From: a virus
Lineage: Duplodnaviria; Heunggongvirae; Uroviricota; Caudoviricetes
Reading direction: 5' to 3' (one strand)
Length of the DNA: 7,229 nucleotides
IMG/VR virus record: IMGVR_UViG_2675903368_000012
Made by a program: the position numbers and the translations under genes. Of this stretch, positions 1 through 7,229 are shown piece by piece. The notes beneath the pieces are model-generated. The model saw only the letters and a list, made by a program, of their open reading frames with translations, was not told where the DNA came from and searched no databases. How positions within the stretch are numbered: position 1 is the stretch's first letter; every line of letters begins with the position of its first letter.

Positions 1-2112
<2,112 letters not shown>

Positions 2113-2118
2113 AGTGAT

Positions 2119-2484
2119 TTACTTCGTCATGCCATTCAGGGTGTCGCGGCAGACTGTAGCCAGCCGCTGAATTTCCAGCACGGTGTCTTCTGTGTCGGCA
2201 TGGCGATGTGTGATGCGGATGCTGTCGGCAATCACATCGACGATTGCAGAGGATGGGCGCTGGTAAATGCCAATAACGGACGGGGTGCCACCTTCAATGC
2301 GGTAAAGCCTGCAATTTCCCTCGTGGCTGTCAATCATGTAGCGACCATCAATAACAATCTTTCCGTCAGCGAGCTGCGGTACAGGCAGGGATTTCAGGTA
2401 CATGTCATAACGATCACGCACGCGAGCGGCAAGATCACGCTCTGTGTTGAGCAGGTATTCAAGAAAGTCGTTGGCGAGAATCAT
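2119..2484 (-). CDS. Hypothetical phage early protein, 121 aa, immediately upstream of gene A
   Basis: ORF with a GAGGA Shine-Dalgarno about 8 nt upstream of the ATG at 2484. Its TAA stop lies 6 nt before the gene A ATG, suggesting translational coupling. No family recognised. Confidence 0.7.
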   Translation of the reverse strand: MILANDFLEYLLNTERDLAARVRDRYDMYLKSLPVPQLADGKIVIDGRYMIDSHEGNCRLYRIEGGTPSVIGIYQRPSSAIVDVIADSIRITHRHADTEDTVLEIQRLATVCRDTLNGMTK

Positions 2485-2556
2485 TGCGGCAATCCTCTTG
2501 TTACAGATGTGCGAAGGCCTCCCGCCGCAAGGTGCAGGAAAGGCCCGGAACAGGAA

Positions 2557-2787
2557 TTAATGGAGTTTGTTTTGCTGCTGGATGAGCTGTTGAAGCTCGT
2601 GCAGATCATCCGCCAGATAGCTGAAAACAGAGGCGGAATAAATGTTTGATAGTGCGTGGCTGCGCTCATGCAACATATTGATGTGCATGATTTGCGCGAC
2701 GCGTGATGCGCGGGAAAGTCTGCGGTTGATTTCAGTCTGGATGTGACGACGCTCCGCGATAGCGCGGTGTGGTTTGCGGTTTGCCAT
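2557..2787 (-). CDS. Hypothetical small basic protein, 76 aa, first ORF after the structured leader
   Basis: ORF MANRKPHRAIAERRHIQTEINRRL... with C-rich third codon positions typical of enterobacterial coding sequence. A possible SD (AAGGGG) sits 8 nt upstream and is embedded in a hairpin arm. An overlapping alternative frame (the 205 aa ORF in the track) is low-complexity and was rejected. Confidence 0.5.
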   Translation of the reverse strand: MANRKPHRAIAERRHIQTEINRRLSRASRVAQIMHINMLHERSHALSNIYSASVFSYLADDLHELQQLIQQQNKLH

Positions 2788-2925
2788 GGTGTGGCCCCTT
2801 GTGTAGTAAGTTGTGAAAACTCACCATCCAGAGCTGCGAAACTGTGGGTGGCGAGACGTACGAGGTTCGCAGTACCGGCTACACAAGAACCCGGCCCGAC
2901 CGAAGTCGGCCCCGTACGCCCCGCC

Positions 2926-2954
2926 ATAATTCTGACGCGAAAAAAACGTGGCAA
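2926..2954 (-). promoter_or_regulatory. Candidate sigma70 promoter just downstream of the terminator, for the 76 aa / 121 aa / A module
   Basis: Minus strand reads TTGCCA (-35, 5/6 to consensus), a 17 nt spacer, then AATTAT (-10, 4/6 with A2 and T6 present). Predicted start near nt 2919, at the base of the cUUCGg hairpin. Sequence-only call. Confidence 0.3.
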
Positions 2955-2964
2955 TACAGAACGC

Positions 2965-2987
2965 ACAAAAAAACCGCTGGCGCGGTT
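2965..2987 (-). terminator. Rho-independent terminator for minus-strand transcripts leaving the 99 aa gene
   Basis: Read on the minus strand: stem AACCGC / GCGGTT (6 bp, 4 GC pairs) with loop GCCA, followed directly by a run of 7 T. On the plus strand the same hairpin is followed by GTGCG with no T-run, so it is unidirectional. Confidence 0.55.
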
Positions 2988-3109
2988 GTGCGCTTGTGTA
3001 GTCAGCAGGCTGCGAAACCCGGCACCCGTTTTGTGAGGTGCAGCGGAAATGTAACCTGACTGATTGCGGCATGGCAAGCGGTTTTTTTGTGTGTGCATGT
3101 TCTGGTTTC

Positions 3110-6224: not shown

Positions 6225-7229
6225 ATGTCGATTAAGAAGCTCGAAGATGGTCGTTATTTGCTGGACATCAGGCCGAACGGACGCAAGGGAAAGCGCGTGC
6301 GTAAGGTATTTGACAAAAAATCGGTAGCGGTGGCCACTGAACGCTACATCATGGCGAACGCTGAAAAGCGGAAATATATACAGGGCTACCGTGATCGTCG
6401 AACGCTAAATGATTTGCTTGAGTTGTGGTGGATGTATCACGGCCAGCACAGGCGTAAGGCGGAAGAAGACCGAAAACAACTGCGCAACATAATCAATGAG
6501 CTTGGCGCTGATATGCAGGCTGTGGATCTTGATAAGCTGAAAATTATCGCGTGGCGTTCTCAAAAGATAGCTGATGGATTGAAACCGTCATCTGCTAACA
6601 GGTACATGAATCGGTTATCCGGAATGTTTACCGTGCTGAAAAAAATAGGTCTTTGGGATGCAGAACATCCAGTAAGGGGAATTTCTATTCTTTATGTATC
6701 TCCACGAGAAATGGCGTTCCTGTCACAGAAGGAAGTGGCGCTATTGCTCGATACACTGGAGGGCGACTACTGGCGTGTTGCGCTTTTGTGTTTAAGCACA
6801 GGGGCGCGCTGGAGTGAAGCTTGTAAGCTTCGTGGTGAACAGATAGTTCATAACCGTGTAACGTTTCTTGAAACCAAAAATGGCCGGAAGAGAACAGTAC
6901 CAATTTCGCAGGCAGTTTGTGAGGCGATCAAAACCAGAGAAACAGGCGGCTTGTTTGAGGTGAAGTACCGGGAATTCTGCCTGGCGCTGAAAAGAGTTAA
7001 GCCCGATTTACCAAAAGGCCAGGCTGCACATGTGCTGCGGCATACGTTCGCCAGCCATTTTGTGATGAACGGAGGAAACATTATTGCGCTTCAGAAGATT
7101 CTTGGTCACGCAACCATTCAGCAAACAATGGCATATGCGCATTTTGCACCGGATTACCTGCAGGATGCGGTGGCCCTTAATCCGCTGAAAGGTGGCGTAA
7201 GTGTCCACGCAGTGTCCACGGGGGATTAA
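6225..7229 (+). CDS. int: Tyrosine integrase, P2 Int-like, 334 aa
   Basis: N-terminus MSIKKLEDGRYLLDIRPNGRKGKRVRKVFDKK parallels P2 Int. Catalytic-domain motifs LSTGARWSEA, HVLRHTFASH and LGHATIQQTMAYAHF. GGAGGG SD 7 nt upstream of the ATG at 6225; the track ORF starts at an upstream TTG. Confidence 0.9.
   Translation: MSIKKLEDGRYLLDIRPNGRKGKRVRKVFDKKSVAVATERYIMANAEKRKYIQGYRDRRTLNDLLELWWMYHGQHRRKAEEDRKQLRNIINELGADMQAVDLDKLKIIAWRSQKIADGLKPSSANRYMNRLSGMFTVLKKIGLWDAEHPVRGISILYVSPREMAFLSQKEVALLLDTLEGDYWRVALLCLSTGARWSEACKLRGEQIVHNRVTFLETKNGRKRTVPISQAVCEAIKTRETGGLFEVKYREFCLALKRVKPDLPKGQAAHVLRHTFASHFVMNGGNIIALQKILGHATIQQTMAYAHFAPDYLQDAVALNPLKGGVSVHAVSTGD

Follow-up and report, generated by a model that had tools for sequence, protein, structure and literature searches.

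A probable P4-type RNA immunity cassette in a P88-like, P2-type temperate phage

The DNA analyzed here, called the window throughout, is a stretch of 7,229 nucleotides (nt) from the IMG/VR virus record IMGVR_UViG_2675903368_000012 (Caudoviricetes). It carries genes for a C-type repressor, Cox, replication protein A and an integrase in the P2 order, and its Pfam matches include Phage_Cox, Phage_GPA and other early-operon families. The repressor is a homologue of P2 C (37% identity, E = 1e-22), and over 941 nt the window shares 99.6% identity with Xuanwuvirus P884B11; it is 92 to 97% identical to P88 and its relatives, which are P2-like phages. An earlier note on this DNA, made from the letters alone, had pointed to a triplicated two-part motif ahead of the replication genes and had proposed a leader hairpin that hides a ribosome-binding site. 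We found that the segment 3098-2481 on the minus strand is very likely an RNA immunity cassette of the P4 type, placed within the early operon of this P88-like, P2-type temperate phage. It is a c4/CI-family immunity RNA system of a known kind and not a new type of leader. The features at the locus are listed below; in the text, minus-strand positions are given in the direction of transcription.

2481 to 3098, minus strand: eta-like open reading frame (ORF) of 205 amino acids (aa), from a Pfam Phage_ASH match, a frame match and conservation
3048 to 3088, minus strand: predicted cassette promoter, like PLE of P4 and PisrK, from a consensus scan and conservation
2967 to 3041, minus strand: isrK/seqA-like small RNA, from RF01394, a terminator scan and the a1-a' and b1-b' pairing
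2844 to 2931, minus strand: c4/CI-type antisense RNA, from RF01695, its own fold and covarying stems
2795 to 2841, minus strand: downstream target a2/b2, the equivalent of P4 seqC, from sequence, covariation and duplex energies
2557 to 2787, minus strand: 76-aa epsilon-like ("derepression protein") ORF, the first gene under putative c4 control, from Pfam and BLASTP
1 to 2484, minus strand: the genes that the cassette should gate, a 121-aa ORF (2484-2119) and replication gene A (2112-1), from Pfam

The whole window was scanned with Rfam covariance models, using the gathering scores as thresholds (45 bits for RF01695, 50 bits for RF01394 and 46.7 bits for RF03163). The earlier note had proposed an Rfam search of the motif region as a check; the scan returned C4 and isrK above their thresholds, both on the minus strand. 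The C4 antisense RNA model (RF01695) matched 2931-2844 with 83.2 bits (E = 8e-16) over model positions 1 to 87 of 87, and the isrK model (RF01394) matched 3041-2967 over its full length with 64.1 bits. When the Rfam models were run on P4, isrK matched the seqA/terminator region and C4 matched the CI RNA; the genes that come next there are epsilon, orf151, orf106 and alpha. The repeats had been said to recall the c4/CI antisense RNAs of P1 and P4, and the relationship is closer than a likeness: the RNA is a member of the Rfam C4 family, and the order isrK-C4-epsilon is identical to that of P4.

The repeats themselves, described as two direct copies and one inverted copy, were found exactly where they had been placed, with a 9-mer and a 7-mer three times each. 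The 9-mer CTTGTGTAG occurs exactly three times in the 7,229 nt, at 2798-2806 and 2993-3001 on the plus strand and at 2879-2887 on the minus strand, and CTGCGAA occurs at 2834-2840 and 3010-3016 on the plus strand and at 2866-2872 on the minus strand, with an additional, unrelated copy at 6905. A repeat search of the window recovered the same direct and inverted pairs. Taken alone, window-wide shuffles gave weak significance (22 of 200 for the 9-mer with one mismatch allowed and 18 of 200 for the 7-mer), and such shuffles are blind to the presence of six copies within 220 nt in a fixed order and spacing. A chance origin is irrelevant, because the six boxes co-vary in 86 related loci with almost invariant flanks.

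The inverted copy lies within the c4-type RNA. A 17-bp closing stem (2926-2910 with 2865-2849) encloses hairpin 1 (2909-2896) and hairpin 2 (2895-2874); box a' (CUUGUGUAG, 2887-2879) is in the loop of hairpin 2, and box b' (CUGCGAA, 2872-2866) is in the junction. Folded alone, the RNA adopted the family structure at -47.7 kcal/mol. The pairing behind the proposed two-tier hairpin of about 90 nt is real, but the simple nested hairpin is not favoured: in the minimum-free-energy fold of 2931-2770 (-66.6 kcal/mol) c4 stayed intact, and enforcing the nested hairpin gave -58.4 kcal/mol, about 8 kcal/mol worse. The region is thus more than a leader, since the inverted copy forms the loop (a') and the junction (b') of a discrete 88-nt RNA gene. 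According to these models, c4 should not melt for box pairing; its exposed loop and junction should pair with a linear target. Such loop-to-linear pairing would occur in trans, or as a pseudoknot if in cis.

The upstream pair of direct boxes lies in the isrK-like RNA. This RNA has hairpin 1 at 3041-3022 and a hairpin 2 with box b1 (UUCGCAG, 3016-3010) in its loop, followed by box a1 (CUACACAAG, 3001-2993), which is single-stranded. The terminator scan placed an intrinsic terminator behind a1, with the stem at 2987-2972 and a U run to 2967 (a T run of the minus strand in the DNA). The earlier claim that this copy stands just before a terminator was borne out, and the copy could compete for the inverted copy; its description as the tail of the transcript of the upstream operon was incomplete, because the copy is not merely a tail and lies within an isrK/seqA-like RNA with its own conserved promoter-like site.

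The downstream pair of boxes forms the target, in which box b2 (UUCGCAG, 2840-2834) is followed by a spacer hairpin (2826-2804) and by box a2 (CUACACAAG, 2806-2798). As had been proposed, a2 runs straight into the Shine-Dalgarno sequence of the 76-aa ORF: it overlaps AAGGGG (2800-2795), which is 7 nt ahead of the epsilon-like ATG at 2787.

To cover the related prophages, in which the earlier note had suggested a covariation test, we fetched 86 loci encoding epsilon-like proteins and aligned about 350 nt upstream of each. The backbone, including the promoter-like hexamers and the terminator, was almost invariant, and the variation was concentrated in the six boxes. The loci carried 13 combinations of boxes, in which 11 types of a' and 5 types of b' reassort. 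Throughout these combinations, a1 and a2 were the reverse complement of a', and b1 and b2 the reverse complement of b'; the exception was the outermost a2 base, which was occasionally off. Compensatory changes were seen in the boxes and in the c4 stems, and the proposed partners, the inverted copy with each direct copy, are correct.

Formal covariation counts were made on 12 representatives. In the set formed by the c4 stems, a'-a2 and b'-b2, 99.2% of the cells were paired and 14 pairs had changed on both sides, and in the a1-a' and b1-b' set these values were 99.8% and 15. None of 500 shuffles reached the observed percentage of pairing, number of double-sided changes or covariation score, and slid controls were 36 to 46% paired overall and 38 to 46% paired for the first set. 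When the boxes were counted separately over the 12 types, a1-a' and b1-b' were 100% paired (6 of 9 and 4 of 7 pairs changed on both sides), a'-a2 was 97% paired (5 of 9 pairs changed on both sides) and b'-b2 was 100% paired (4 of 7 changed). In the c4 closing stem, pairing was 99.5%, 3 pairs having changed on both sides and 5 on a single side; in hairpin 1, double-sided changes were seen in 2 pairs, and hairpin 2 was invariant.

RNAcofold and duplexfold of c4 with its target missed the box duplexes, loop-to-linear pairing being beyond these methods. Since joint-structure folding cannot represent such pairing, duplex energies were calculated at the level of the boxes. The mean of the summed energies was -23.2 kcal/mol for cognate vs -8.6 kcal/mol for non-cognate combinations, and the duplex of a1/b1 with a'/b' had -21.9 kcal/mol. 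Two representatives with the same a' and b' boxes were the only ones to cross-react. When IMG/VR was scanned for the box pattern of the window, there were 40 matches, all in a P88-like backbone and none in P4-like or lambdoid elements.

Two of the variants bear on whether the boxes work as RNA or as DNA. In the type represented by L082, a G of a' stands opposite a U of both a1 and a2, and the pair is kept as G.U; in ST64B, a1-a' contains one G.U wobble. The replacement of Watson-Crick pairs by G.U wobbles in these types fits pairing of RNA and not DNA sites. The earlier note had offered protein-binding sites as an alternative, in which the copies would be DNA sites for a phage regulator and would follow any change in its specificity. 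That the three copies covary is, on its own, compatible with this, since the sites of one protein would also change together in either orientation. As DNA, however, the G.U-only pairs of L082 and ST64B would be mismatched sites. Furthermore, the boxes lie exactly in the unpaired loop and junction of an RNA with covarying stems, the a and b boxes reassort independently, and the homologues work as RNA according to the literature. We consider protein-binding sites very unlikely.

The same pairings could also serve a leader switch that acts only in cis, in which the inverted copy hides the Shine-Dalgarno sequence together with the adjacent copy, the upstream copy competes, and no trans-acting RNA is made. 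The three sites are on one transcript within 250 nt, and the covariation is equally compatible with pairing in cis; in Gifsy-1, the long isrK transcript forms an inactive structure in cis (PMC4825925). However, the inverted copy is part of a self-contained C4-family fold over which the nested hairpin is not favoured, and the homologous P1 c4 and P4 CI are processed RNAs that act in trans (PMC4825925, PMC12197685, PMC10111431). The many specificity types are also a prediction of immunity in trans, and a switch confined to cis has no obvious need for them. A purely cis-acting switch therefore seems improbable to us, and an antisense RNA of the c4/CI type is the reading that we prefer.

The predicted promoter of the cassette has a -35 element TTGCCA (3077-3072), an 18-nt spacer and a -10 element TACATT (3053-3048) in the consensus scan. 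An A7 tract at 3088-3082, at about -47 to -41, resembles an UP element. The promoter-like site ends 7 nt ahead of the first base of the isrK model match, and this base coincides with the predicted start at about 3041. Among 46 distinct related sequences, the site shows little or no variation. The equivalent place in P4, just upstream of its isrK match, has TTGCCT-17-TATAGT, and that in lambdoid phages has TACACT.

Two other local signals were noted near this site. A second sigma-70-like match (TTGCCA-17-AATTAT, 2954-2926, minus strand) lies between the terminator and c4; its -35 element varies in relatives (TTGCCA/TCGCCA), its start would fall inside the c4 closing stem, and it is probably a chance match. 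A 21-nt inverted repeat (3094-3074 and 2981-2961, 19 of 21 positions complementary) joins the A-tract region to the 3' half of the isrK terminator and the U run, and it is present in the minimum-free-energy fold. The idea that this repeat is an antiterminator that allows read-through past the isrK terminator is unsupported, the repeat being invariant in relatives and having no equivalent in P4. Pairing with the 3' half of a terminator is also kinetically unfavourable. The A7 tract fits no less well as an UP element belonging to the internal promoter.

The 205-aa ORF covers the promoter-like site, isrK, c4, a2/b2 and, out of frame, the epsilon-like ORF. Its Pfam Phage_ASH score is just above the cut-off (26.9 vs 26 bits), and its frame relative to the RNA is that of P4 eta; the link to P4 eta consists only of the Ash profile and this frame equivalence. 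The eta-like ATG (3098) lies upstream of the predicted start of the internal promoter and within about 12 nt of the stop codon of the upstream gene, in several different junction contexts, and the eta-like stop overlaps the start of the 121-aa gene in the sequence ATGA (2484-2481). The ORF is open in 81 of the 86 related loci, and all 37 distinct epsilon alleles keep its frame open. By synonymous resampling, the chance of an open frame was 0.076 over epsilon; it was 0.023 for the RNA part and 0.0003 when the whole ORF was shuffled, and the conditional chance for a diverged Citrobacter allele was 0.064. The predicted ORF may be a long dual-coding stretch.

If the region were conserved because it encodes an Ash/Eta-like protein, the repeats would be incidental. 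The 205-aa ORF, with its weak Phage_ASH match, does span the region and is open in most relatives. However, coding leaves unexplained both the reverse-complement covariation at three sites and the strong covariance-model scores, the protein is most variable exactly at the boxes, and insertions and deletions in E. albertii-type loci shift the frame across c4 with the RNA kept intact. We find it hardly credible that coding accounts for the conservation, and we return to the RNA cassette below.

In the E. albertii-type loci (L006, L075 and L087), one nucleotide is inserted at b1 and one is deleted at b2. The eta-like frame is shifted across the whole of c4, an alternative frame is open there, and the original frame is then regained; two of the three frames are open across the G+C-rich c4 region.

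The first gene behind the target is the 76-aa ORF. It matched Pfam PF25738 (Derepression) with 32.5 bits against a cut-off of 27 and was 29% identical to P4 epsilon in BLASTP (E = 4e-9), and its homologues are named "derepression protein" in the sources. P4 epsilon is known to bind P2 C. Farther downstream, the 121-aa ORF showed no similarity to P4 orf151, and gene A matched Pfam Phage_GPA with 429.8 bits. Gene A was matched in 79 of 90 loci and the 121-aa ORF in 65 of 90. The early regions of P2 and 186 gave no C4 or isrK match, and since these phages are without it, the cassette is an acquired module.

Positions 1-73 of the window are the terminal part of IS100 (IS21 family), which has many copies in E. 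coli. This end replaces the C-terminal 260 or so codons of gene A, which is 703 aa here vs 940 aa in relatives, and the junction of IS100 with gene A was found in no complete E. coli genome of the collection. Judging from the truncated gene, this prophage is probably replication-defective.

The immunity regions of known elements suggest how the cassette may work. P4 transcripts from the upstream promoter escape termination through translation of eta, and a constitutive promoter within eta gives terminated transcripts and CI (PMC10111431). The seqA site of P4 promotes termination (PMC4825925, PMC10111431), and P1 c4 acts on ant (PMC12197685). By analogy, transcription from the internal promoter, starting at about 3041, would produce the isrK/seqA-like RNA with b1 and a1 and would end at the intrinsic terminator. 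Read-through of the terminator would provide the c4/CI-type RNA, presumably by processing, with a' in the hairpin loop and b' in the junction. Acting in trans, c4 would pair through a' and b' with a2 and b2 and would block ribosome entry at the epsilon-like Shine-Dalgarno sequence. The untranslated message would then be prone to termination, probably Rho-dependent, and this polarity would lower the expression of the 121-aa gene and gene A. On a1/b1, c4 may cause termination of the nascent transcript, as at seqA of P4, or may be titrated by the short RNA in the manner of IsrK. Transcripts from the early promoter upstream would carry the eta-like start codon, and translation as far as the ATGA would probably let them bypass the block; the early operon would take the role of the upstream promoter of P4. 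The box sequences would be specificity types, which would lead to heteroimmunity.

It is also possible, though we hold it to be on the unlikely side, that the main function is an activator circuit of the IsrK type, in which the long transcript is by default translationally silent and the short a1/b1 RNA, formed at the terminator, works in trans against the antisense RNA and opens the epsilon ribosome-binding site, leading to derepression and induction. The upstream RNA scored above the isrK threshold and has its own terminator and promoter-like site, and a1/b1 pair with a'/b' as well as a2/b2 do (-21.9 kcal/mol, as given above). IsrK of Gifsy-1 acts in trans and activates a downstream anti-repressor-like gene (PMC4825925). 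However, the homologous seqA site of P4 leads to termination and not to activation, and the short RNA and c4 would come from one promoter, with a balance that is not predictable from sequence. The activator circuit is compatible with the immunity cassette, and both may hold.

Several points weigh against reading the segment as a P4-type immunity cassette. The c4-a1b1 model (RF03163) scored 20.9 bits in the window, under its threshold of 46.7; the stretch that it scored is better described by the isrK model, and P4 itself scored 44.1 bits with c4-a1b1, likewise just under the threshold. The isrK stems were 100% paired in relatives but were invariant or changed on one side only, so these stems and the terminator add no covariation evidence, and covariation does not separate pairing in cis from pairing in trans. 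Promoter activity, RNA ends, RNA processing and action in trans are predictions from sequence and from homologues. The scheme of P4 is also not copied exactly, as there is no kil ORF between a2 and the epsilon-like ATG. The eta-like ORF is broken in 5 of the 86 loci (four frameshifts and one nonsense codon), its single-sequence statistics are modest, and BLASTP of the ORF against P4 eta was not significant. With gene A disrupted by the insertion sequence, the cassette may no longer matter in this prophage. Finally, in two genomes of IMG/VR the cassette is found on a pair of contigs with identical box types (L029/L030 and L044/L045). These contigs are either assembly duplicates or co-resident prophages, and co-residence would speak against strict exclusion.

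The arrangement had been regarded as new for a P2-type element in which the RNA stands in front of the replication genes. This was right in part: the whole cassette is homologous to the P4 immunity region, which also lies ahead of replication genes. That region is laid out as PLE - seqA - CI RNA/seqB - seqC - kil/eta - epsilon - orf151 - alpha. The two elements share the layout b2 - hairpin - a2 - Shine-Dalgarno, which in P4 stands ahead of kil, and an epsilon homologue as the first downstream family with the replication genes farther on. Both have isrK, C4 and the epsilon gene in the same order, and in both the RNAs are covered by a long ORF, in the same frame, whose start is upstream of the internal promoter. 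They differ in that the window lacks kil, with a2 directly abutting the epsilon-like start, and in that the eta-like ORF of the window overlaps epsilon out of frame and ends on the next start codon, whereas P4 eta contains kil in frame. The replication gene is the P2-type nickase A in the window and the primase-helicase alpha in P4, and the cassette resides in a complete P2-like phage that encodes a C repressor and Cox of its own, whereas P4 is a satellite. The upstream promoter is that of the early operon in the window and PLL in P4, and nucleotide similarity is low outside the RNA cores.

In the immI region of P1 and P7, the c4 antisense RNA, with its targets a1/b1 and a2/b2, controls icd and ant. 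The first ORF there is small and has its ribosome-binding site overlapped by the downstream target, an anti-repressor is gated by the RNA, and differences between the box sequences of P1 and P7 result in heteroimmunity. The window resembles P1, as known from the literature, in the Rfam C4 family, in the two-box recognition and in having one target pair upstream and one downstream at the ribosome-binding site. It differs in that its upstream targets are in an isrK-type RNA with a terminator, in its low c4-a1b1 score, in that its first ORF is epsilon-like and not Icd, and in that replication genes and not ant lie downstream.

The isrK - orf45/STnc1160 - anrP region of Gifsy-1 also has an isrK-family RNA with a promoter and a terminator, a c4-like RNA and a gene of the anti-repressor type. 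It differs from the window in its downstream genes and in its published mechanism, which is activation in trans and not immunity. Stx and ST64B-type phages are about 70 to 73% identical to the window in nucleotides over 2803-3041, and the lambdoid phages Stx2a_WGPS2 and ST64B have the same cassette and box architecture with box types of their own. In these lambdoid phages, unlike the window, the cassette lies within a single coding sequence (CDS) of about 385 aa with an Ash segment and a Rha domain (gp13 of Stx2a_WGPS2, L093; Sb41 of ST64B, L094). The lambdoid b boxes (b' UUUCCAC with targets GUGGAAA, in L093 and L094) are the strand-swapped form of the P88 type (b' GUGGAAA).

By megablast, the 307-nt cassette was present in 1153 of 5426 complete E. 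coli genomes (21%), with 1283 copies. Searches of the literature gave no description of a c4/CI RNA in P2-like phages, P88 or Xuanwuvirus, and the Rfam C4 and isrK models have already been used to find relatives of CI and seqA in satellites (PMC10111431). The presence of the P4-style RNA immunity and epsilon module in a full P2-type phage lineage links helper phages and satellites through a shared regulatory cassette. It also makes one ask what role an epsilon-type anti-repressor has where the phage already encodes a C repressor. The at least 11 natural specificity types, with compensatory changes at three sites in a near-constant backbone, offer a clean system for the study of RNA heteroimmunity and for the design of orthogonal antisense switches. 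The helper-satellite link, this natural set of types and the overprinted eta-like ORF are the points of interest.

A wider picture, which we put forward tentatively and think rather doubtful as a whole, is that P88-like helper-type phages may possess a second, RNA-based layer of immunity that was borrowed from P4 satellites or is ancestral to theirs. This layer would gate a self-directed epsilon-type anti-repressor and the replication nickase, the hypervariable two-box code would be a barcode for kin recognition, and the overprinted eta-like ORF would be a translated bypass device. If this were true, silencing and derepression among P2-like phages and P4-like satellites, co-resident or incoming, would depend on their box codes.

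Annotation pipelines put spurious or "ash-like" protein features over these RNA genes. In the 12 E. coli records listed, no RefSeq feature was found under the cassette match, and phage records show, across the cassette, either a hypothetical CDS on the plus strand or a note that reads "similar to ash family protein". Examples over the C4 and isrK RNAs are 4869-5057 in L002 (P88 SF19_gp13) and 4859-5119 in L001, annotated as a hypothetical CDS or an "ash family" pseudo-feature. The plus-strand ORFs of the window at 2743-3036 and 2844-3059 are probably equally spurious.

One of the related loci, L007, is on a contig assigned to "Vagococcus sp. WN89Y" (NZ_JBQPOM010000071.1). It has a P88-like early region with C4 and isrK, in which the epsilon-like protein is 88% and gene A 81% identical. 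As an enterobacterial region on a contig of a Gram-positive Vagococcus, it most likely reflects assembly contamination or mis-binning.

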